32,285 nucleotides of DNA from Victivallales bacterium. GTDB taxonomy: Bacteria > Verrucomicrobiota > Lentisphaeria > Oligosphaerales > Oligosphaeraceae. Under the pieces are notes generated by a model, which saw only the letters and a list, made by a program, of their open reading frames with translations, was not told the origin of the DNA and did not search any database. The stretch is from assembly GCA_017458805.1 (NCBI GenBank), contig JAFTAC010000355.1, positions 1-32,285 on the forward strand. Direction: 5' to 3'. Both the position numbers and the translations under genes were made by a program. How positions within the stretch are numbered: position 1 is the first letter of the stretch; each line of letters begins with the position of its first letter. Positions 7,246-27,429 of the stretch are shown in pieces.

Positions 7246-8748
7246 ATGAGTGACGAACAGACAGCGATGGCTCCAGAGGAGCAGAATGTCAAGAAGGAAG
7301 ATATTCGGGCGCAGCGCCTGAAGAAGGTCGAGGAGATAAAGGCGAAGGGCGGGAACCCATACGGGCACCGTGTGGATGGCATCGTCAGCAGCACGGCTGC
7401 CAAGGCGGCGTATATCGACGAGGAGCATCCCGTCAACGTGAAGGTTGCGGGACGTCTTGTTTCGTGCCGTCTGATGGGCAAGTCGCTCTTTGCGCACCTG
7501 CTGGACCAGGAGGGGCGGATACAGCTCTACGTCCAGAAGAACGTGGTGGGTGATGACGAATATGCAGCGTTCAAAGCACTGGACCTGGGCGACATCATCA
7601 GCGCGGAGGGACCTGTGTTCAAGACGCGCACAGGGGAGGTCAGCGTGAGAGCGGAGAAGTTCGAGCTGCTCTCCAAGTCCATTCGTCCGCTGCCCGAGAA
7701 ATACCACGGCCTGGTGGATATGGAGCAGCGCTACCGCCAACGCTACCTGGACCTCATCTCCAACGAGGAGGTGCGCAAGACGTTTGTGCTGCGGAGCCGC
7801 ATTGTCTCCGAGATTCGCAACTATCTTGACAGCAAGGGGTTCATGGAGGTTGAGACCCCGATGATGCAGCCTCTGGCGGGGGGCGCGGCTGCGTGCCCCT
7901 TCACGACGCACTACAATGCACTGAATGCCACGATGTACCTGCGCATTGCCACGGAGCTTTACCTGAAGCGACTGGTTGTCGGCGGCTTCGAGAAGGTCTA
8001 TGAGATTGGCCGCAACTTCCGCAACGAGGGAATGGACCGCAAGCACAATCCCGAGTTCACGAGCATTGAAATCTACCAGGCCTACTCTGACTGCCGCGGC
8101 ATGATGGAACTCATCGAGGACATGGTCTGCACTGTTGCGATGAAGCTCTTCGGCAGCCTGGTCTTCAAGCGTGAGGACGGCGTGGAAATCAACCTGACGC
8201 GCCCCTGGCGCGTGGCCCCCTACATGGACCTCATCAAGGAGAAGATGGGCGATGACTGGTTTGGCCTGCCGACCGCCGTCAAGCGCGAGAAGGCTCGTGC
8301 CCTTCAGCTCCGCATCCCCGACGAGATGGAGGACAAGGACATCACGCAGGAAATCTACGATAAGGTGATTGAGCAGACGCTCATTCAGCCCACCTTTGTG
8401 ACGCGCCTCCCCGCGTTCCTGGTGCCGCTTGCCAAGCGCTGCGAGGACGACCCCGAGCTGGTGGATGTCTATGAGCTGGAAATCAACGGGCAGGAAATCT
8501 CCCCCGGTTACTCCGAACTCAACGACCCCATTGAGCAGCGTTCGCGCTTCGACCAGCAGCTCATCGGGCGTGGCGACGTCGAGGGCGAGGTGAACCGCAT
8601 TGACGAGGACTTCCTCACGGCTCTGGAACATGGCATGCCCCCGACGGGCGGTCTTGGCATGGGCATCGACCGCATCGTCATGCTGCTGACAGGCGCCCCC
8701 TCCATCCGCGACGTCATCCTCTTCCCGCAGATGAAACTAGAGAGGTAA
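7246..8748 (+). CDS. lysS: lysine--tRNA ligase, class II
   Basis: The match is unmistakable: YLRIATELYLKRLVVGGFEKVYEIGRNFRNEG plus the motif 3 region GGLGMGIDRIVM. ATG 7246 has an SD (gagga); the alternative in-frame ATG is 7228. Confidence 0.95.
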   Translation: MSDEQTAMAPEEQNVKKEDIRAQRLKKVEEIKAKGGNPYGHRVDGIVSSTAAKAAYIDEEHPVNVKVAGRLVSCRLMGKSLFAHLLDQEGRIQLYVQKNVVGDDEYAAFKALDLGDIISAEGPVFKTRTGEVSVRAEKFELLSKSIRPLPEKYHGLVDMEQRYRQRYLDLISNEEVRKTFVLRSRIVSEIRNYLDSKGFMEVETPMMQPLAGGAAACPFTTHYNALNATMYLRIATELYLKRLVVGGFEKVYEIGRNFRNEGMDRKHNPEFTSIEIYQAYSDCRGMMELIEDMVCTVAMKLFGSLVFKREDGVEINLTRPWRVAPYMDLIKEKMGDDWFGLPTAVKREKARALQLRIPDEMEDKDITQEIYDKVIEQTLIQPTFVTRLPAFLVPLAKRCEDDPELVDVYELEINGQEISPGYSELNDPIEQRSRFDQQLIGRGDVEGEVNRIDEDFLTALEHGMPPTGGLGMGIDRIVMLLTGAPSIRDVILFPQMKLER

Positions 8749-19014: not shown

Positions 19015-20277
19015 ATGCCAGAATACCTTATCGTCCATGCCTGTGTCATCGATCCTCTGAACGACTATGTGGGGGTGCGGGATCTTGCCATCAAGGACGG
19101 CGTTTTTGTCCGTCCCGAAGAGCTGCGTTCGCCAGAGCGTCTGGATATGAAGGGGCTTGTGGTCTGCCCTGGCTTCACCGATGTGCATGTGCATTTGCGT
19201 GACCCAGGCCAGACCTACAAGGAGGATTTGCAGAGCGGTACCGCAGCAGCGGCGGCGGGCGGCTTCACCTCCATCCTCGCCATGCCAAACACTGTTCCTG
19301 CCATGGATTCCCCCGAGATGGTGCGCGATATCCACAGGCGTGCTGTTGATGCGCCTGTCCACGTCTATCAGGCGGCGTGCTTCACGAAAGGTCGACTGGG
19401 GCAGGAGCTGTCACCGATGGAAGAGCTGGCCGCCGCTGGCACTCCCGCCTTCTCCGATGACGGCAGCACCACGCAGAGCAATGCGTTGATGGAAGAGGCG
19501 ATGGCTCGTGCCGCCGCGCTGGGATTGCCCGTCATCGACCACTGCGAGGACACGTCTATTTCCAAGCCAGGTGTCATGCACCGTGGCTTTGTCTCCATGG
19601 AGATGGGGCTGCCTGGGCAACCGCGTGTCGCCGAAGAGATCATTGTGGAGCGGGATATACGCTTGTCGCGCAAAACAGGGTGCCACGTCCACTTGCAGCA
19701 CTTGAGCTCTGGCGGTTCCGTCAAGATGCTTCGCGAGGCAAAGAAACAGGGTGTGAAGGTGACTGGCGAGGCTACGCCGCACCATCTTTTCCTGACCGAT
19801 GAGGCCTGCCGCAAGTACGGCACCAACGCAAAAATGGCACCGCCTCTGCGCGAAGAGGTTGACCGCCAGGCGCTTATTTCAGCACTTCAGGACGGCACCA
19901 TCGAACTTATCGCCACCGATCATGCACCACACACCGCTGAGGAGAAGGCTCGTGACTGGGCTTCGGCACCCTTTGGAATTGTCGGCATTGAGACAGTTGT
20001 TCCGCTGTGCATCTCGCGCCTGTATCATCCAGGGCTGCTGTCGCTTATGCAGCTGGTTTCACTCTTCACCATCGGCCCTCGCCGTCTCCTCAACCTCCCC
20101 ATCGGCAGCCTGAACATCGGTGAACCTGCGGATTTGACGGTCCTCGACCTTGAGAAGAACCACACCATCGACACGTCCAAGTTCCGCTCACGCGGCCAGA
20201 ACTGCCCCTACAACGGCTGGGAATGCACAGGCGCAGTCCACAGCACCTTCCTTGCGGGCAAGCATATTGGAGGGTGA
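19015..20277 (+). CDS. pyrC: dihydroorotase
   Basis: It has PGFTDVHVHLRDPG and IATDHAPH, with a typical length of ~420 aa. Confidence 0.92.
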   Translation: MPEYLIVHACVIDPLNDYVGVRDLAIKDGVFVRPEELRSPERLDMKGLVVCPGFTDVHVHLRDPGQTYKEDLQSGTAAAAAGGFTSILAMPNTVPAMDSPEMVRDIHRRAVDAPVHVYQAACFTKGRLGQELSPMEELAAAGTPAFSDDGSTTQSNALMEEAMARAAALGLPVIDHCEDTSISKPGVMHRGFVSMEMGLPGQPRVAEEIIVERDIRLSRKTGCHVHLQHLSSGGSVKMLREAKKQGVKVTGEATPHHLFLTDEACRKYGTNAKMAPPLREEVDRQALISALQDGTIELIATDHAPHTAEEKARDWASAPFGIVGIETVVPLCISRLYHPGLLSLMQLVSLFTIGPRRLLNLPIGSLNIGEPADLTVLDLEKNHTIDTSKFRSRGQNCPYNGWECTGAVHSTFLAGKHIGG

Positions 20278-20280
20278 AGC

Positions 20281-20751
20281 ATGGAAGACCGCTTCATCTA
20301 TCATGGTAGTCAGCAGAGGGTTGAAAAGCCAGAAATTCGTGTCAGTAGATTTGGCAAGGATTTCGGTGTTGGGTTTTATTGCACGATTATAAAGGCGCAG
20401 GCCATCCGATGGGCGACACGCTTTCCTGTTACGGGCTTTGTCAGCGAGTTCGCCTACACACAGAATCCTGCCCTGAAGATGAAGTTCTTTGAGACAATGA
20501 CCGAAGAGTGGCTTGACTTCATTGCCGATTGCCGCCATGGCAAACCTCATGATTATGACATCGTGGAAGGACCAATGGCCAATGACACCATTTTCAATTA
20601 TGTTGAAGATTTCATTAACGGCAACATCTCGCGCGAGGCTTTTTGGGCTTTGGCCAAGTTCAAAAGGCCGACGCATCAAATATGCTTTCATACGACAGAA
20701 GCACTTGCCACGCTGACATTCAGAGGATGTGAAACGTATGATACCGTTTGA
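20281..20751 (+). CDS. DUF3990-like protein, copy 1 (PARP/ART-like YHGS...GFYCT signature)
   Basis: ATG lies 3 nt after the pyrC stop, with an SD (ggaggg). Motifs are IYHGS, DFGVGFYCT, IRWATR and YDIVEGPMAND. The family name is from memory. Confidence 0.75.
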   Translation: MEDRFIYHGSQQRVEKPEIRVSRFGKDFGVGFYCTIIKAQAIRWATRFPVTGFVSEFAYTQNPALKMKFFETMTEEWLDFIADCRHGKPHDYDIVEGPMANDTIFNYVEDFINGNISREAFWALAKFKRPTHQICFHTTEALATLTFRGCETYDTV

Positions 20752-21199
20752 TTACGATTTATTCTTCACGTGCAGTCTTCTGGAACTTATGGCTCGGAAA
20801 ACCCTCCAGAAGCGCGGGGCTTTGGTGACACTGCTTGGCAAGAAGATTGTCGCTCATATCTACTCCCATGCTGATGTCCTGCATTGCGAGCCAATTGAGA
20901 AGACAGCGGAGACATTCATTGAGATGTGCAATGTTCCGCAAGGAGATTTCGACAATATCAGCTCATGCAAGTTCACGGTGCCCACGTACTGGGACATTGG
21001 TAAGGTCTATACCCGCCTGATACAGGATGTCAACGACGGCGACCTTATCGATACACTTTTCACGGTCTATACCTCCATCACCAGCGACCTTATCTGCAAT
21101 TTCAACAGTGCCTTTTACTATCAGTCGCGCGATGCAATCAAGTTCTATTATTATGAATTTGCAGGACCCAAACAAACGTCAACGGCTTCGGGGAGGTAA
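20738..21199 (+). CDS. DUF3791-like partner protein, apparent two-domain fusion
   Basis: ATG 20738 overlaps the upstream ORF by 14 nt (the alternative start is GTG 20729). By eye, the N-terminal half aligns to ORF 21921 and the C-terminal half to ORF 21673. Confidence 0.6.
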   Translation: MIPFDYDLFFTCSLLELMARKTLQKRGALVTLLGKKIVAHIYSHADVLHCEPIEKTAETFIEMCNVPQGDFDNISSCKFTVPTYWDIGKVYTRLIQDVNDGDLIDTLFTVYTSITSDLICNFNSAFYYQSRDAIKFYYYEFAGPKQTSTASGR

Positions 21200-21202
21200 A
21201 TA

Positions 21203-21676
21203 ATGTTGTTATATCATGGAAGTTACATGGTGGTTGATGCCCCGAGGCTGATTATTCCGCAGCGTCTGTTAGATTTTGGTCCAGGTTTTTACTTGACGAG
21301 CGACTTCGAGCAGGCTCGGAAATGGGCGACCCGTACCAAGATTATTCGCAATTCGGGAACGTCTGCAGTCTCCGTATTTGATTTTGACGAACAAGAGTTG
21401 GCACGCCTTGAGGTTTTGACTTTCAGCTCGCCTAATCGTGAATGGCTTCGTTTTGTTGTTGCCAATCGTACTGGTAAGCTCACGCCACAATACGATATTG
21501 TTCATGGTCCTGTGGCAAATGACCAGACGGTGCGTACAATCAATGACTTCCAAAACGGTTATTTCTCCGAAGAGATTGCTCTTCAGCTTTTGTTGCCTCA
21601 AAAGCTGAAGGACCAATTTGCGTTCAAAACAGAAAAAGCTTTGCAATGCTTGCATTTCAAGGAGGCTCTTGCATGA
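21203..21676 (+). CDS. DUF3990-like protein, copy 2
   Basis: ATG lies 3 nt after TAA 21197-21199, with an SD (gggagg). Motifs are LYHGS, DFGPGFYLT, RKWATR and YDIVHGPVAND. Confidence 0.75.
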   Translation: MLLYHGSYMVVDAPRLIIPQRLLDFGPGFYLTSDFEQARKWATRTKIIRNSGTSAVSVFDFDEQELARLEVLTFSSPNREWLRFVVANRTGKLTPQYDIVHGPVANDQTVRTINDFQNGYFSEEIALQLLLPQKLKDQFAFKTEKALQCLHFKEALA

Positions 21677-21918
21677 ATCGTCCTGCACCTGAAATCATCG
21701 ACTTCCTCGACTGTGAAGTTACCAAGATGATAGCGGAGAAGTATGGCTATGAGCCGATGGAAGCTCTGCGACAGTTCGTATATTCCGCAACGCATGAACT
21801 GTTGGAGAATGCGGACATGGGGTTGCATTTGTACAGCGCGGGGGTTATCTTTGATCTCTGGGAAGCGGAGAAGGTGACGGGTGATCCGCGCAGGTCCATT
21901 TACATCAGGGAGGGGTGA
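21673..21918 (+). CDS. small helical partner protein (DUF3791-like)
   Basis: There is an ATGA start/stop overlap at 21673-21676 and an SD (aaggagg) at 21658-21664. The protein is 81 aa. Confidence 0.6.
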   Translation: MNRPAPEIIDFLDCEVTKMIAEKYGYEPMEALRQFVYSATHELLENADMGLHLYSAGVIFDLWEAEKVTGDPRRSIYIREG

Positions 21919-21920
21919 AT

Positions 21921-22145
21921 ATGTCCGAGGAAATGAAGTTTTTCATCTATCTTCTGGAGCAGTATGCGGCATATCGCAATATGAAAACGGGCGATGTCTT
22001 GCGCGAATGGGATCAGAAGCAACTTACAAAGCGGATTTACGACAGCTATTGGGGGTATCACACAGAGCGGCTTGAAAACGCATTCACCGACATCGACAGT
22101 TTGCTTGAAACTGGCAAGTCCGCATGGATCGCACCACATGCGTGA
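21921..22145 (+). CDS. DUF3791-like small protein
   Basis: ATG 21921 follows TGA 21916-21918, and an SD (agggagggg) is present. The alternative start is GTG 21915. The pattern FFIYLLEQYA...IYDSYWGYHTERLE resembles DUF3791 from memory. Confidence 0.65.
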   Translation: MSEEMKFFIYLLEQYAAYRNMKTGDVLREWDQKQLTKRIYDSYWGYHTERLENAFTDIDSLLETGKSAWIAPHA

Positions 22146-22167: not shown

Positions 22168-23301
22168 TCAACAAGTTACAAGACTTGCCATTACAGTTGT
22201 ACGCATACTGCCTTTTTCAGCGAACAAGGCGCTGTCCGTCACCACGGCGGCGTTTTCGCCAAACGGTGCGCAATGGAAATTGCCGTATCTTGCCTCAATG
22301 CCATTGTGGTTTTGTTGCGGGAAAACCACTTTTTCGCTGTCCCGTAGAAGAGATGCGTTCTCAACATTAGCCTCTGCAATAAAGAGCGGTGCGCGGAAAC
22401 GCATGATGTGCGTATTGCTTCCGTTGTTTCGCGTATAGACGAGAAACACCTTATTGCCGAGGCGTATCCAATGCTGCTGCGTGGAGTCGGTTTCAATCGG
22501 ACTACCGTCATCCCAACGCCATGGGCGTATGTCGCGCCACGAAAGGCCATCCACGCTAACCGCACGGTACATATTGCCGTCTTCCGCACGCAATGTCAGC
22601 GCAAACGTCGAATCCGCAAGGCGTATGGCCGATGGTTCTACGCAGCCGCGTAGAACGGGCAGCTCCAGCAGGTCGCTTTGCGCTTCCAAAACCAACTGCG
22701 ACGCCTCAATGCGATAGATTGCCGTCATGGATGCAAAGCGAGGAGAGGTATATCCATGGAAATCGCAGGTCTTGCCACTGTCCAAATAAATCGGCAGGAG
22801 TATGCGATCATTCTCCAGTAGTACTGCCTGCGTGCAAGCTGTGCGATAGGAACGCGTTATGCCATTGAGTTCCAAAACGCCATAACCACTCCACGTTCCC
22901 GTGTCAGGCGACCATAAACTATAGACTGCCTTGCCAGACGGCGGCTTTGCCGTCTGGCCTTTGTCCCAAAAGGCATTGCCTTTTGCTGTGTAGTGACTTG
23001 TGCAGCCAAACACGGCAACCCGTCCATCCTGCAACGTGAATGGCCGCACATCGGCGACTCCCTCTGTAAATGGCGTGCTCTCAAGAGTTCTGCACTTGAA
23101 GGCAGGAATCTCTTCTGGCACCGACCATTCTTCCTCTAGGCCGTTGCACAGGGCGTACATCGGCGCTCCATAATGGTCGGAGCCGTTGATTTCCTGCATG
23201 GAGGCAAAGACCCTCCCGTCATGCAGAAGTGTGGTCGAAGGATGGAACCAGGCAGTTTGACTCGTTCCAAAGTTATTGATTTTAAGTGACTTGAGTATCA
23301 T
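22168..23301 (-). CDS. BNR/Asp-box (sialidase-fold-like) protein, no signal peptide
   Basis: It has one Asp-box-like SVDGLSW and beta-rich composition. ATG 23301 lies 1 nt after the upstream ATPase stop. Confidence 0.45.
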   Translation of the reverse strand: MILKSLKINNFGTSQTAWFHPSTTLLHDGRVFASMQEINGSDHYGAPMYALCNGLEEEWSVPEEIPAFKCRTLESTPFTEGVADVRPFTLQDGRVAVFGCTSHYTAKGNAFWDKGQTAKPPSGKAVYSLWSPDTGTWSGYGVLELNGITRSYRTACTQAVLLENDRILLPIYLDSGKTCDFHGYTSPRFASMTAIYRIEASQLVLEAQSDLLELPVLRGCVEPSAIRLADSTFALTLRAEDGNMYRAVSVDGLSWRDIRPWRWDDGSPIETDSTQQHWIRLGNKVFLVYTRNNGSNTHIMRFRAPLFIAEANVENASLLRDSEKVVFPQQNHNGIEARYGNFHCAPFGENAAVVTDSALFAEKGSMRTTVMASLVTC

Positions 23302-23302
23302 A

Positions 23303-24640
23303 CTAATTTGAGGAGTTTTTCAGGAATCTCCTTAGCAGAAACGCGCAGAAGTATGGGAATGTCGTGATGGTTTCTGTTTGACCGAGGTTTCCATTGATGA
23401 ACTTGATGCCGTGGCGGATGTCAGGATAGTGGTCAGAGGCTATCAGATTGCGCAGGGATTTTGAGATGGAGTTTCCGCCTTTTACTTCAATGGGAAGCAG
23501 CTCACTTGCTGTCCTCACGAAGAAATCCTGTTCGAGCGAGCCGTCTTCGCGGCGGTAGTAATAGAGGTCATAGCCAGACTTGGAAAGCGCTTCTGCTACG
23601 ATGTTTTCGTAGATCGCCCCCTTATAGACGCCGAGATTGTTGTTAATGCGCAAATCATCGCCAGCCTCGTCGTCAAGCATGGCAACCAACAGGCCCGTAT
23701 CAGGAACATAGAGCTTGAACTTCTGCATATCGGCATTGCCTTTCAGCGGCAGTTCGGGAAAGTTGAGGCAGTGGCAGATGGAGGCGACGCCTGCGTCCAG
23801 CAGCCATTCAACGCATCCAAAATACTCCCTTGAACGGGCTCCCGGTGCTATCTTGCTGTATTGGAACTTCTTGTTTTCTTTGGCAAGCTGCGGCGCAATC
23901 TGATTGAACACCGCCTGAATCTTGGTTTTGTCCAGGCTTTCCGCATATTTGCGGATGTCCGCCTGGTAATCCTGCAGGATCTGCCGTTGAATATCCAGCG
24001 TCCGTTCAAATGTGTGCCGCGTAACATAATCACGCAGAACAGCGGGCATTCCGCCAAGCAGAATATAATCCATGAATAGGTTTGAAAACAGCTTCAGTTC
24101 CCCAGGCGTGAATGGCTTGAGAGATTGCATTTGCTCAAATATCTCATCAGCAATGTCTTCTTGATACCCAAGAGCCCAGAGGTACTCCTCGAAGTCAAAG
24201 GAACGCATGAGGTAGTCTGTTTTGTAGCCGACACTTTGCGATGCAATCCGCTTGTACTGAATGCCAAGCAGCGACCCGCTGCAGATGACATCAAAACGCC
24301 CGTCCTGCTTGAAGAACTTCAACGATGTCGTGATGTCGGGAAACTCCTGCACCTCATCGAAGAATATCAAGGTATGGCCAGCCTCAAAGCGAAATTGCGG
24401 GGTCACTTTGGACATCAGCTTGACGATGCTTGAAGCACTATATCCCTCTTCAATAATGGTTTTGAACTTCGGCTCTTCAACAAAATTGACCTCAAGAAAA
24501 CGGCGATAATTCTCCTTGGCGAAAGACCGTATGGTCTCCGTCTTCCCAACCTGGCGCGCTCCACGTACAATCAGCGGCAGACGCTCCTCCGACTGCCGCC
24601 ATTCCCGCAGAAAACCATCTGTTTTTCGTTTCAAATACAT
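23303..24640 (-). CDS. AAA-type ATPase with DUF4143-like C-terminal domain
   Basis: Walker A is GARQVGKT and Walker B is LIFFDEVQ. Length and layout are typical of this widespread ATPase family. Confidence 0.8.
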   Translation of the reverse strand: MYLKRKTDGFLREWRQSEERLPLIVRGARQVGKTETIRSFAKENYRRFLEVNFVEEPKFKTIIEEGYSASSIVKLMSKVTPQFRFEAGHTLIFFDEVQEFPDITTSLKFFKQDGRFDVICSGSLLGIQYKRIASQSVGYKTDYLMRSFDFEEYLWALGYQEDIADEIFEQMQSLKPFTPGELKLFSNLFMDYILLGGMPAVLRDYVTRHTFERTLDIQRQILQDYQADIRKYAESLDKTKIQAVFNQIAPQLAKENKKFQYSKIAPGARSREYFGCVEWLLDAGVASICHCLNFPELPLKGNADMQKFKLYVPDTGLLVAMLDDEAGDDLRINNNLGVYKGAIYENIVAEALSKSGYDLYYYRREDGSLEQDFFVRTASELLPIEVKGGNSISKSLRNLIASDHYPDIRHGIKFINGNLGQTETITTFPYFCAFLLRRFLKNSSN

Positions 24641-24707: not shown

Positions 24708-24801
24708 GAAATCACGTTTTTTGGAGTTTTTAGACGCGAAAAATCACGTTTTTCGGAGTTTTTAGACGCGAAAAATCACGTTTTTCGGAGTTTTTAGACG
24801 C
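24708..24801. repeat. 32-bp direct repeat x3 upstream of the ATPase gene
   Basis: Copies 24738-24769 and 24770-24801 are identical (gaaaaatcacgtttttcggagtttttagacgc). Copy 24708-24737 is 30 nt, two A shorter with one further substitution. The array lies 68-161 nt upstream of ATG 24640. Confidence 0.92.
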
Positions 24802-24894: not shown

Positions 24895-27429
24895 CTACAG
24901 CTCCATCAGGAATGGATTGAGGCTGATCATGTTGACACCGAGGGCCTCGCCTGTGAGGGCTTTGGCGTTGCTGAGGGTGAGGGTTGCCTCGGAGGCGTTG
25001 GCGATGAAGACGATGTGGTGCAGGTTGATGGGGGCGAAGCTGGCCTGGGGCTTCGAGCCGTCGCGCCTGTTGTTGACGTAGTGCCACGTGAGGTCGGGGC
25101 GGATGGTCACGCCGTCGATGGTTGCCTCGATGCCTAGGGCGCGCGATTTGACGGGGTTGACCCCGAGGGCAGCGGTGTCAAATACGGCGAACTGCAGGCA
25201 GTAGGCTTTGCCTGGTACCAACCCCTTGATGACCTGCGAGAGGGTGGTTGTCTCGTCAGCCTTCTTGGTCATAACGGCGTAGGTGTCGCCTGTGCCGTCA
25301 AGGCAGGACCAGCGGGCCTCGCTGGCGTTTGAGAAGCCAAGTGTGGCGGTGGTGGAGACGTTGCCGACGGCTTTCCATCCATCGAGGCTGCCTCGGAAGT
25401 CACCGTTCTGCAAATGGTTCGGGATGTAAGAGTAGCCGTACTGGTCGGAGAGCATGTCGCGCCTGCCTTCAATGCAGTAGTGCCTAAGGAGCAGCATGGA
25501 CCAGCGGTGCAGTTCGTGGTCGCCGTAGTAGCTGCCCCAGTAGCCTGTGCATGCGATGTTCTTGAGTTCGGGATGGTTGGCGATGAGGTTCAACTGCATG
25601 TCCAGGAAGTACTTGTAATCGACCTCGGGGTGATGGATGACGCTGATGAGCGGCACTTGGTTGAAGTTGCCGAGGATGACTCCAAGGTGCTCCTCGATGT
25701 GCGGGAAGTGCTTCTTGTACATCCGCACGGTGTCAATGATGAAGTTCTCCGTATGTTTGCGCGCAGAGGCCTCGTCAGGCATCGTCGGGCTATAGAGTTC
25801 GGAGAGGATTTTGCCGCGACCGCGCGTGACGTTGACGCATGCGGAGATGACATCGTTGTCAAGCCCTGCAGCGGTGGGTTTTCCCACGAACCAGGAGTAG
25901 AGGTCGCGTCCTTCGGGGAAGTTGTATTGGCGCAGTCCTGCAATGAATCGCAGAAGGGCGTCGTGCTGTCCGAAGAACTGCTCGTCGCATGTCACACCGC
26001 AGTACTGTGGGGCGTAAAGCCCCTTGGCACCGTTTAGGACTTCCATAAAACGTTCTGTGCTAACCATGGGTTTTGTTCCAACGGAACCCATCCAGCGCTG
26101 CCCGTTTTTGCGGATGTAGGCCACCTGCTCATCGGTCAGGATACCTCCATTGAAGGTGGTGACGGCGGGATGGAGGTATTTCTTCTGGAACTCCCAGTCG
26201 TAGGGGGGATTCGTAGGCACGAAGCTGTTGTTGCCAGGGCAGTAGTCGAAGACTTCCGCGATGGTGCGGACGATGATTCGCCCGCCTTTTTCGGCACCCT
26301 TGACTGTGATGGTGTGGTGTCCCATGGGAACGAGCCTGAAGGCCTCCAGGCGGGGTGTTTGGGTGTCGATGACGGCATTGTCTGCATCAAGCGAAATGTG
26401 CAGGTTTAGGTTGGCGGAGGCGTTCTCTGCGGCGATGAATAGCCAGCCGTCGCGGACGGTGTCGAAGCGGAAGGACTGCGGTGCGTTTGTCGCCTTGAGG
26501 TCGCTGTTGACGACTTCGGAGACCAGGTTGTTCAGCACCTTATGCCCTTTGTCGGAGACGTTTGGAAACTCCATTATCGTGTAGTGGAAGATTGGATTCA
26601 GCAGGGCTTTGCCTGTTTCCTTGCGGATGACGGCCACCTCCAGTTTGCCGCCCTTTGCGCCCGCTGGAAGCTTGACGGTGTTGACGTTCTTCACAAGATT
26701 CTGGACAACAGGCTGTTCTGCGCCCTCTGCTTTGACGACAAGGCTGTAGTCGTTGTAGTTGTCTGTGGGGAGGCGTCCGAAGAAGTTGAATGAGATGGTG
26801 GGATTGTCGGCTGGGATTCTGTCAAGCAAGGGTTCCCATGGGACGATGCGCAGGGCACGGTCATCGGAGTCCGAAGGTTCCGTGTATTTGAGGGCACCCT
26901 CGCTGATGGCCTCCAGGCGGAGGTCGGCCACACTGAGTTCGCCCGTGAAGTTGACGGTGAAGACGGCGATGAAGTACTTGCCGTCCTTGGCGGGCATGGC
27001 GGTGACCTCCTCCTGGAAGAGCGTCCAGTCGCAGTTGGCGGGGAGTTTTTTGATGCCTGCGTCCTGAAGCCAGCCAACATTGGCGATGATGATGCCAGCC
27101 TTGCCGTACTTCAGGTCTTTGGTGCGGACGCGTGCGGAGATTCGATAGGTCTCGCCCTCCTTCAGGTTTAGCCCGAACTGGCGGATGGTGAAGCTGCGCC
27201 TGGAGGCGGAGTTGTTGGTGTAGGTGATGGCGGGCAGACCTTCTGGCCCTGCGTTGTTGCTTGCCTTGAGGATGCCAGCCGAGTCCGTGCCTGTAATCCA
27301 GCACATCGGTATGGTGCTCTGGTTCAGCTCAAAACGGCCATTCTGCACGATGTTGTCACCAGGCCTGACCTCCGCCAGCGAAAGAAGGGACGCAAACAAC
27401 AACGAGATGGAGAAGAAAAGCTTTTTCAT
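24895..27429 (-). CDS. large secreted protein with CBM-like (galactose-binding-like) N- and C-terminal modules
   Basis: It has a signal peptide (MKKLFFSISLLFASLLSLA). The N-terminus reads NGRFEL...W...GETYRISARV and the C-terminus reads NGDFRGSLDGW...GKAYCLQFAV, both typical of CBM4/9-like modules. The central catalytic region is not identified. Confidence 0.7.
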   Translation of the reverse strand: MKKLFFSISLLFASLLSLAEVRPGDNIVQNGRFELNQSTIPMCWITGTDSAGILKASNNAGPEGLPAITYTNNSASRRSFTIRQFGLNLKEGETYRISARVRTKDLKYGKAGIIIANVGWLQDAGIKKLPANCDWTLFQEEVTAMPAKDGKYFIAVFTVNFTGELSVADLRLEAISEGALKYTEPSDSDDRALRIVPWEPLLDRIPADNPTISFNFFGRLPTDNYNDYSLVVKAEGAEQPVVQNLVKNVNTVKLPAGAKGGKLEVAVIRKETGKALLNPIFHYTIMEFPNVSDKGHKVLNNLVSEVVNSDLKATNAPQSFRFDTVRDGWLFIAAENASANLNLHISLDADNAVIDTQTPRLEAFRLVPMGHHTITVKGAEKGGRIIVRTIAEVFDYCPGNNSFVPTNPPYDWEFQKKYLHPAVTTFNGGILTDEQVAYIRKNGQRWMGSVGTKPMVSTERFMEVLNGAKGLYAPQYCGVTCDEQFFGQHDALLRFIAGLRQYNFPEGRDLYSWFVGKPTAAGLDNDVISACVNVTRGRGKILSELYSPTMPDEASARKHTENFIIDTVRMYKKHFPHIEEHLGVILGNFNQVPLISVIHHPEVDYKYFLDMQLNLIANHPELKNIACTGYWGSYYGDHELHRWSMLLLRHYCIEGRRDMLSDQYGYSYIPNHLQNGDFRGSLDGWKAVGNVSTTATLGFSNASEARWSCLDGTGDTYAVMTKKADETTTLSQVIKGLVPGKAYCLQFAVFDTAALGVNPVKSRALGIEATIDGVTIRPDLTWHYVNNRRDGSKPQASFAPINLHHIVFIANASEATLTLSNAKALTGEALGVNMISLNPFLMEL

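Follow-up and report, generated by a model that had tools for sequence, protein, structure and literature searches.

What is encoded by five small genes that are packed almost without spacing behind the dihydroorotase gene pyrC of a Victivallales bacterium, and do they act as one system or as several? We addressed these questions on a contig of 32,285 nt (JAFTAC010000355.1 of assembly GCA_017458805.1; hereafter the window, meaning the whole stretch of DNA that was analyzed), in which the five open reading frames (ORFs), O1 to O5, occupy positions 20281-22145 of one strand. We read this block as a widespread conflict module of three domains that is present in two adjacent copies, each independent of the other: O1-O2 (module 1) and O3-O4-O5 (module 2). 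Each copy combines a large DUF3990 protein, named A here, with small helical partners, named B (O4-like), C (O5-like, DUF3791) and X (O2-like). With a confidence slightly above even, we propose that each module is a latent NAD+-dependent ADP-ribosyltransferase (ART) effector restrained by B and C, i.e., a toxin-antitoxin-like module of abortive infection or defense. Both modules belong to candidate systems that have already been catalogued, PDC-M10 and PDC-M13, and to that catalogue we add three elements: (i) evidence for an ART fold and a NAD+ pocket with an invariant Gln; (ii) moderate support for unifying PDC-M10 and PDC-M13 as a single three-domain system; and (iii) the strain-level presence and absence of module 1.

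Two catalogued candidate systems in one gene block

All five genes lie on the plus strand, separated by overlaps or gaps of at most 14 nt. O1 (20281-20751, 156 aa; ATG at 20281, stop codon at 20749-20751) begins after a gap of 3 nt from the pyrC stop codon (20275-20277) and overlaps O2 (20738-21199, 153 aa; ATG at 20738, TAA at 21197-21199) by 14 nt. O3 (21203-21676, 157 aa; ATG at 21203) follows after another 3 nt and shares an ATGA overlap at 21673-21676 with O4 (21673-21918, 81 aa; TGA at 21916-21918), and O5 (21921-22145, 74 aa; ATG at 21921, stop codon at 22143-22145) starts after a gap of 2 nt. We preferred ATG 20738 to GTG 20729 as the start of O2 because its homologues begin at the same Met. 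Purine-rich sites resembling Shine-Dalgarno sequences (GGAGGG, GAGGA, GGGGAGG, AGGAGG and GGGAGGGG) are found 7-15 nt 5' of the five starts. An original prediction, made by reading the DNA without database searches, had given these same coordinates, junctions and overlaps, which are exact to the base, and had noted a purine-rich site for each ORF. The tight packing is not due to chance, since gene order and overlaps recur in relatives from more than 10 phyla; the A-B gap has its mode at -4, and the A-B junction of M13-type loci is accordingly most often ATGA, with B-C gaps of about +1 to -8.

The base composition of the block had also been noted as distinct. In 300-nt windows, the G+C content of the cassette is 0.44-0.50, versus 0.58-0.65 for pyrC and 0.55-0.63 for the gene of an 844-aa secreted protein. 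The low-GC stretch is wider than the cassette, extending to about position 24900 and covering the genes at 22168-23301 and 23303-24640. We found no direct repeats, att sites, tRNA gene or integrase gene flanking this stretch. No convincing promoter was found between pyrC and O1, in promoter and terminator scans that were uninformative overall, and the cassette is probably co-transcribed with pyrC.

We compared the five proteins with Pfam, NCBIfam and the defense profiles of PADLOC-DB v2. Both large proteins belong to DUF3990 (Pfam PF13151, gathering score 32.2 bits): O1 scored 166 bits (E 6e-49) and O3 163.7 bits (E 3e-48), with matches spanning 150-152 of the 152 profile positions, which is full length. 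O5 belongs to DUF3791 (PF12668, gathering score 25 bits), with 35.6 bits (E 9e-9) over profile positions 2-58 of 60. The match of O2 to DUF3791 was sub-threshold (16.3 bits, E 0.0097, residues 10-65), O4 matched no Pfam family, and NCBIfam gave no match for any of the five. The two family names that the original prediction had given for the large and small proteins are thus correct for O1, O3 and O5; the small-protein name stays below threshold for O2 and finds no match in O4.

All five proteins match profiles of PADLOC, in which PDC stands for "phage defence candidate". O1 and O2 match PDC-M10A (PDLC04411, E 4e-74) and PDC-M10B (PDLC04414, E 2e-50); they are adjacent, on the same strand and overlapping, as members of PDC-M10 are. 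O3, O4 and O5 match PDC-M13A (PDLC04436, E 7e-63), PDC-M13B (PDLC04440, E 1e-30) and PDC-M13C (PDLC04446, E 4e-36), and are adjacent on the same strand in the order of cassette CAS_00120 of PDC-M13. The catalogue proposed 145 PDCs as untested candidates on the ground that their homologues are embedded in type I restriction-modification (RM), BREX or DISARM loci (Payne et al., bioRxiv 10.1101/2024.01.29.577857). Within it, PDC-M10 is the two-family cassette FAM_00403>>FAM_01732 (supplementary file 8), and PDC-M13 is a three-family cassette with two permuted orders, one of them FAM_00403>>FAM_00080>>FAM_00109, that have the DUF3990 family in common (bioRxiv 10.1101/2024.01.29.577857). Gene number, order and strand in the window are like those of the catalogued systems. 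Unlike the loci on which the candidacy was based, the two copies in the window stand back to back and outside RM, BREX or DISARM loci. For neither PDC-M10 nor PDC-M13 does the catalogue offer a function or mechanism, and it keeps the two apart as systems.

This independent listing agrees with the original prediction of an uncharacterized toxin-antitoxin or defense-like candidate in two modules; the family is not an unrecognized one. DUF3990/DUF3791 modules account for 7,821 clusters at 50% identity, and few PADLOC calls are more frequent in rumen genomes than PDC-M13, which was counted 3,324 times in 6,530 of them (PMC13356809). The locus is an ordinary member of catalogued, very abundant, uncharacterized candidate families. 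It does not resemble a phage-gene family, because a search of PHROGs returned a single, marginal match.

Predicted fold and NAD+ pocket of the large protein

DUF3990 has been assigned to the ART clan by Pfam (PMC7955679). We modeled O3 with AlphaFold2 (AF2) from 38 homologues, at a mean predicted local distance difference test (pLDDT) score of 91.6, and searched the PDB with the model by Foldseek. The best matches were the RES toxin 9r35 (E 6e-4), PARP4, PARP1/2, cholix toxin and exotoxin A (ExoA); KptA and Arr were matched more weakly. ART-fold matches had probabilities of 0.9-1.0, E-values down to 6e-4 and template modeling (TM) scores of 0.43-0.49. One significant match, chain 9k3a_B of a cyanophage pre-ejectosome, is of unidentified fold. 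Judged from the predicted structure, DUF3990 is an ART fold. When PDB sequences were searched with O1, O3 and the family profile, all matches were at chance level, and no relative of solved structure emerged.

Profile alignment points to the same fold and locates a candidate NAD+ pocket. The DUF3990 profile aligned with PARP catalytic cores in hhalign at E 0.0015, over its N-terminal half only. In the alignment with PARP1, LLYHGS corresponds to LLWHGS, pairing H5 with H862, and DFGPGFYLTSD corresponds to MFGKGIYFADM, pairing Y30 with Y896; A38 pairs with S904 and W41 with Y907. These four PARP1 residues, H862, Y896, S904 and Y907, line the nicotinamide site. The HGS, GxGFY and W elements of a PARP-like NAD+ pocket are kept in the family, some members of which also gave sub-threshold matches to ART-PolyVal. 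An hhalign comparison of the DUF3990 profile with the single PARP1 sequence returned a spurious C-terminal match only and was discarded.

We scored conservation over 150 representatives of 50%-identity clusters, using the numbering of O3. The His is present in 143 of 146 representatives, the Tyr in all 147 and Q138 in 144 of 145. H5, Y30, W81, R89, D98 and G102 show practically no variation, D107 is kept in 136 of 148, and both O1 and O3 retain all family-invariant residues (H, G, S, DFG, FY.T, QA..W, GP..ND and Q..F). When the family is compared with the H-Y-E clade of ARTs, the His of strand 1 and the Tyr of strand 2 are found, but the catalytic Glu of strand 5 is not: Q138, in the DQFAF motif of the penultimate strand, is replaced by Glu or Asp in no representative. 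By topology, i.e., from strand order, Q138 would occupy the position of the PARP1 catalytic Glu (E988, strand NEYIV). On this mapping the DUF3990 family would be an H-Y-Q variant and not a classical H-Y-E toxin. Glu-to-Gln replacement in PARP1 and diphtheria toxin strongly lowers activity; since the Gln of DUF3990 is invariant, its chemistry may differ from that of classical ART toxins.

A hint of toxicity, the sole one published, comes from polymorphic toxins: DUF3990 is the C-terminal toxin tip of Rhs effectors of the type VI secretion system in Serratia (Rhs5) and Enterobacter (RhsA) (PMC4524185, PMC10763514). The Pfam domain is the same in the window, but there it stands alone, as a protein of 156-157 aa with no PAAR or Rhs delivery part.

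Helical partners and independence of the two modules

We sampled M13-type loci by scanning one genome per species and keeping 80 loci, 60 after dereplication, from Lentisphaerota, Bacillota, Spirochaetota, Fibrobacterota, Actinomycetota, Bacteroidota, Kiritimatiellota and other phyla, mostly of gut and rumen. Exactly A-B-C was found in 69 of the 80 loci, and most of the others had A-B-C plus extra copies; after dereplication, the numbers were 51 of 60, plus six with extra copies. Three apparent exceptions among the 80 loci were cuts at contig ends, so that both partners are present in 77 of 77 informative loci, and an O4-like gene lies directly 3' of DUF3990 in all informative relatives. For M10-type loci, sampled by a metagenome scan, DUF3990 is directly upstream of and overlapping the O2-like gene in 70 of 80 loci (23 of 26 dereplicated). 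The original prediction is thus upheld on two of the points that could have told against it, family membership and neighborhood: the Pfam matches are significant and the co-occurrence of large and small genes is near obligatory (77/77 and 23/26). Pairwise distances within the three families are also correlated (Mantel correlations of 0.74 for A-B, 0.53 for A-C and 0.53 for B-C, each p<=0.001).

The association is asymmetric. A was never seen without partners in the loci examined, yet partners without intact A do occur, with orphan partners in two loci (L111 and L131) and extra B-C pairs at some others. This asymmetry would be the pattern expected of a toxin and its antidote. At 7750-8444 of a further locus (L081; GCA_001244545.1, LN852694.1), a DUF3990 gene without residues ~47-129 stands beside an intact O2-like partner. 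The pair is flanked by a D12 methyltransferase/DUF6339 pair and a type I CRISPR-Cas locus, and looks like a decayed toxin with its partner retained in a defense island.

How do the two partners of module 2 relate to the single partner of module 1? A Bacteroides plasmid protein of 149 aa is composed of two domains, first B (E 5e-11) and then C (E 1e-10). The O2-family profile matches this B-C fusion in swapped order, with O2 residues 92-142 corresponding to the B part (E 1e-5). In its N-terminal half, O2 resembles O5/DUF3791 (hhalign E 0.0017 over residues 12-59; hidden Markov model E 2e-4 to 4e-4). Direct profile comparison was not significant for B with C (E 0.063) or for B with the C-terminal half of O2 (E 0.15), and the link between O2 and B therefore rests on the Bacteroides fusion as an intermediate. 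B domains are also fused to A: in three cluster representatives (P0311, P0363 and P0367), DUF3990 is followed by a C-terminal B domain (E 3e-31, 2e-5 and 3e-5). These sequence comparisons give moderate support to the view that O2 is a C-B fusion with an O5-like N-terminal half and an O4-like C-terminal half. B and C would then be separate in module 2 (PDC-M13) and fused, in the order C-B, in module 1 (PDC-M10). Since O2 can be read in this way, the comparisons suggest that a single three-domain system would underlie PDC-M10, PDC-M13 and the "DUF3791-DUF3990" pairs of Bacteroides plasmids, with a gene architecture that differs between them.

O4 keeps every residue conserved at >=90%, save for a conservative M43L, and O5 keeps all conserved residues, including Y46, H47, E49, N53 and D57-I58-D59. 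The AF2 model of O2 (pLDDT 92.3) is all-helical, with 8 helices, and has no structural match with E <1 in the PDB or BFVD. The pI values of the proteins were uninformative.

Comparison of close relatives allowed us to ask whether the modules are separable. pyrC occupies 19015-20277 of the plus strand, and the identical gene in two contigs of the same strain as the window (L167 and L168, 99.7-99.9% identity) has Amidohydro_1 and DHOase Pfam matches. A third contig, L169, is 98.2% identical to the window up to position 20282 and 99.0% identical from 21190. The 907 nt between these points (20283-21189), which carry O1 and O2, are replaced in L169 by 64 nt that extend pyrC by 12 codons and also hold a hairpin and a spacer; the junctions fall directly after GGAGGG and directly before GGGGAGG. 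In L169 and in a contig of GCA_016648615.1, pyrC is followed directly by O3-O4-O5, and the O3 protein is identical. A more distant relative (L084, 88% nucleotide identity) has the same pyrC-O1-O2 junction as the window. Because a near-identical strain lacks exactly O1 and O2, we conclude that the modules are independent units and did not arise by duplication in situ. O1 and O3 are diverged paralogues, as had been predicted (36% identity, E 1e-24); the accompanying idea of a tandem duplication does not hold, as the two fall into different subfamilies and a strain that is 98-99% identical is without exactly O1 and O2. No mobility gene is present on the polymorphic segment.

We note two consequences of the polymorphism for pyrC. 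Its product is 420 aa in the window and 432 aa in the strain without O1 and O2 (window 20270-20285; L169 3485-3561), and where O1 and O2 are present, the hairpin CCAGGCCGTCCACGGCCTGG that otherwise follows pyrC is missing. It therefore appears that the cassette has become part of the transcription unit of pyrC. We considered whether the island occupies a pyr-linked hotspot that is conserved in other Victivallales and rejected the idea, as the pyrC junction is found only in near relatives.

Proposed function, alternatives and genomic setting

We hypothesize that A, as an ART-fold enzyme with a NAD+ pocket of the PARP/diphtheria-toxin type, would be the effector of each module, a latent toxin that would ADP-ribosylate a target or consume NAD+. 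Translational coupling would yield stoichiometric B and C, which would hold A inactive by binding to it. Growth would stop once A is freed by a trigger, such as infection by a phage or loss of the element. Enzymatic activity and the role of the Gln, the toxicity of A, its inhibition by B and C, the trigger, the target and protection against phage are what we infer in this scheme.

Several observations weigh against a latent toxin held by inhibitors. First, an invariant Gln is found where topology would place the catalytic Glu of toxic ARTs. Second, the partners evolve as slowly as A (mean pairwise distances of 0.51 and 0.51, versus 0.49 for A) and have polar motifs that are invariant (YH.E..ENA..DID in C, LHCEP in O2 and WE.E.TG.P..S.Y.R in B); this is uncommon among simple antitoxins and would be in keeping with obligate subunits. 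Third, unlike typical type II antitoxins and DarG, O2, O4 and O5 have no DNA-binding domain (helix-turn-helix [HTH], ribbon-helix-helix or AbrB) or hydrolase domain in Pfam and NCBIfam searches. Fourth, no RM, BREX or DISARM genes are near the cassette, which lies between pyrC and a BNR-like gene, and the only defense-like neighbor in the window is a PDC-S01 gene, for which the one test that we found reported no protection (a PDC-S01 representative, challenged with T4, T5 and T7). Finally, we found no published experiment on PDC-M10, PDC-M13, DUF3990 or DUF3791 in the searchable literature; other PDCs have been experimentally validated.

Three groups of known systems provide points of comparison. 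DarTG consists of the ART toxin DarT and the macrodomain antitoxin DarG, and is both a toxin-antitoxin and an anti-phage system. The modules resemble it in having a small effector of ART fold that belongs to the H-Y-[EDQ] clade, a co-transcribed protein partner and a conflict logic that is (here by prediction) NAD+-dependent. They differ in that the partners are two small helical domains without a solved structural relative and that a Gln would take the Glu position; no match to DarT (DUF4433), a macrodomain or PADLOC DarTG was found in any of O1-O5. RES-domain toxins, as in Xre-RES, MbcTA and ParST, are ART-fold proteins that degrade NAD+ or modify Prs. A Pseudomonas putida RES toxin is the best structural match to O3 (9r35 and 6gw6; E 6e-4 to 8e-3, TM ~0.45), the toxins are similar in size, and the operons have two genes. 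The window proteins, however, have an H-Y-Q rather than an R-E-S motif, their partners are neither Xre-HTH nor COG5654 antitoxins, and no RES family or HTH was matched by O1-O5 in Pfam, so the RES likeness is structural only. PrrC and RloC are of interest for their position, since prrC is located between hsdM and hsdS, and so are relatives of the cassette. A latent toxin that guards an RM system is plausible as an analogy, but the effector here would be an ART and not an ABC-ATPase anticodon nuclease, the module has its own partners, and the window has no RM locus.

Might the modules be selfish addiction elements only, which stabilize plasmids or genomic islets by post-segregational killing and have no role in phage defense? 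We consider this unlikely, although part of the distribution fits. Homologues are found on 88 plasmids, including a mobilizable plasmid of 7.6 kb, on which annotation otherwise gives rep, two mobilization-related genes and unnamed hypotheticals, and the pBF9343 family, in which the module adjoins a zeta toxin gene. The O1-O2 polymorphism without a mobility gene, and a chromosomal copy that follows a housekeeping gene with no RM locus nearby, are also what such an element would leave. The surroundings of the relatives argue otherwise. In the flanks of about 80 dereplicated loci, with 221 genes, type I RM subunits are the most frequent Pfam families (Methylase_S 10, N6_Mtase 7, HsdM_N 7 and HSDR_N 7), followed by AAA_14/DUF4143 and integrases, the remainder being single housekeeping families. 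In several lineages the cassette lies between hsdM and hsdS, as in a Moraxella plasmid with the order hsdM-A-B-C-hsdS and 4-nt overlaps, and RM placement is the very basis of the PADLOC candidacy. Addiction moreover overlaps with the explanation that we favor, as many toxin-antitoxin systems are both addictive and defensive.

Quite unlikely, in our estimate, is an obligate heteromeric enzyme of A, B and C that does not poison its own cell but might modify DNA, RNA, the RM complex or a small molecule in a NAD+-dependent manner. The role of B and C as subunits would then be activation or substrate recognition instead of inhibition, and the comparison would be with Arr, which acts on rifampicin, or Tpt1/KptA, which acts on nucleic-acid ends. 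This reading accounts for partners that are conserved as strongly as A and have invariant polar motifs, for the invariant Gln where the catalytic Glu would lie and for fusions in every combination; A is also of the size of Arr, and its weak Foldseek matches include Arr and KptA. It is harder to reconcile with the use of DUF3990 as an Rhs toxin tip, and with the finding that A never occurs without partners, yet partners persist without intact A. A patchy, horizontally transferred distribution, and dispensability between strains that are 98-99% identical, are typical of conflict systems and not of metabolism.

Very improbable is a single five-gene system that arose by tandem duplication in situ and in which all five proteins act together. 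Translational coupling of all five genes in one apparent operon, and the paralogy of O1 and O3, could be read in this way, but O1 and O3 share only 36% identity and differ in their best PADLOC subfamilies, M13-type and M10-type cassettes elsewhere almost always occur alone, and the identical O3 is accompanied by O4 and O5 but not by O1 and O2 in L169 and the GCA_016648615.1 contig. That the five are chance ORFs in a low-GC spacer, for which only their small size speaks, is ruled out for practical purposes by Pfam and PADLOC E-values of 9e-9 to 4e-74, thousands of homologues with conserved residues, and confident AF2 models.

The remaining surroundings of the cassette in the window are housekeeping genes of a Victivallales-like organism and two genes of the low-GC stretch. 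Convergent with the cassette is a BNR-like gene (22168-23301, minus strand, 377 aa), with an intermediate G+C content of 0.49-0.57 and a sub-threshold match only to BNR_2 (sialidase-like). The next gene (23303-24640, minus strand) encodes an ATPase with AAA_14 (E 5e-23) and DUF4143 (E 6e-34) domains and is the PADLOC single-gene candidate PDC-S01 (E 6e-147). PDC-S01 homologues adjoin M13-type cassettes in four further loci (L022, L039, L047 and L053); the homologue in L022, from a metagenome-assembled genome of Acutalibacteraceae, is 59.5% identical. This suggests co-localization or joint transfer; in the window we treat PDC-S01 as context for the cassette, and a functional link is a candidate only. 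A 32-nt tandem repeat, AAATCACGTTTTTCGGAGTTTTTAGACGCGAA, is present in 2.9 copies (98% matching) at 24709-24801, in an AT-rich gap (G+C ~0.41) that separates the 844-aa gene from the PDC-S01 gene, downstream of the former and upstream of the latter, and might be regulatory or iteron-like. Within the 844-aa gene, window 26140-26155 and L167 11683-11755 differ by an indel (~14 nt versus ~71 nt) in contigs that are otherwise 99.8-99.9% identical, and the product in L167 is called shorter, at 383 aa.

Two side observations concern relatives elsewhere. In five proteins (P0316, P0318, P0337, P0339 and P0242), the C-terminal part of HsdS (Methylase_S) is joined to a full DUF3990 domain; these gene calls represent genuine fusions or else result from read-through where hsdS meets DUF3990 in type I RM loci. 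Phage homologues are rare (7 of 50,697 records): DUF3990 homologues of 29-42% identity are found in Geobacillus virus E3 (KP144388.1 / NC_029073.1, 25691-26212) and in five uncultured gut 'Bacteriophage sp.' contigs.

A bolder version of the latent ART effector would make these modules a new and very widespread class of NAD+-dependent abortive infection in gut and rumen anaerobes, in which an ART with an unusual His-Tyr-Gln site is combined with a two-domain sensor/inhibitor without a solved fold relative, and in which PDC-M10, PDC-M13 and the Bacteroides pairs are one system whose domains are variously permuted and fused. We regard this version as possible but doubtful. ADP-ribosylation by such an ART might be directed at, for example, the ends of nucleic acids or some other target that is not classical.

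DUF3990/DUF3791 modules are extremely common and are also carried by the widespread pBF9343-type plasmids of Bacteroides. The locus described here is a natural experiment, in that near-identical strains differ by the presence of module 1, and its two diverged modules side by side make specificity and cross-neutralization straightforward to probe. If the ART model is true, gut microbiomes would have in these modules a major NAD+-based conflict system that is still unexplored, in which an unusual chemistry of the active site is combined with a new partner fold.

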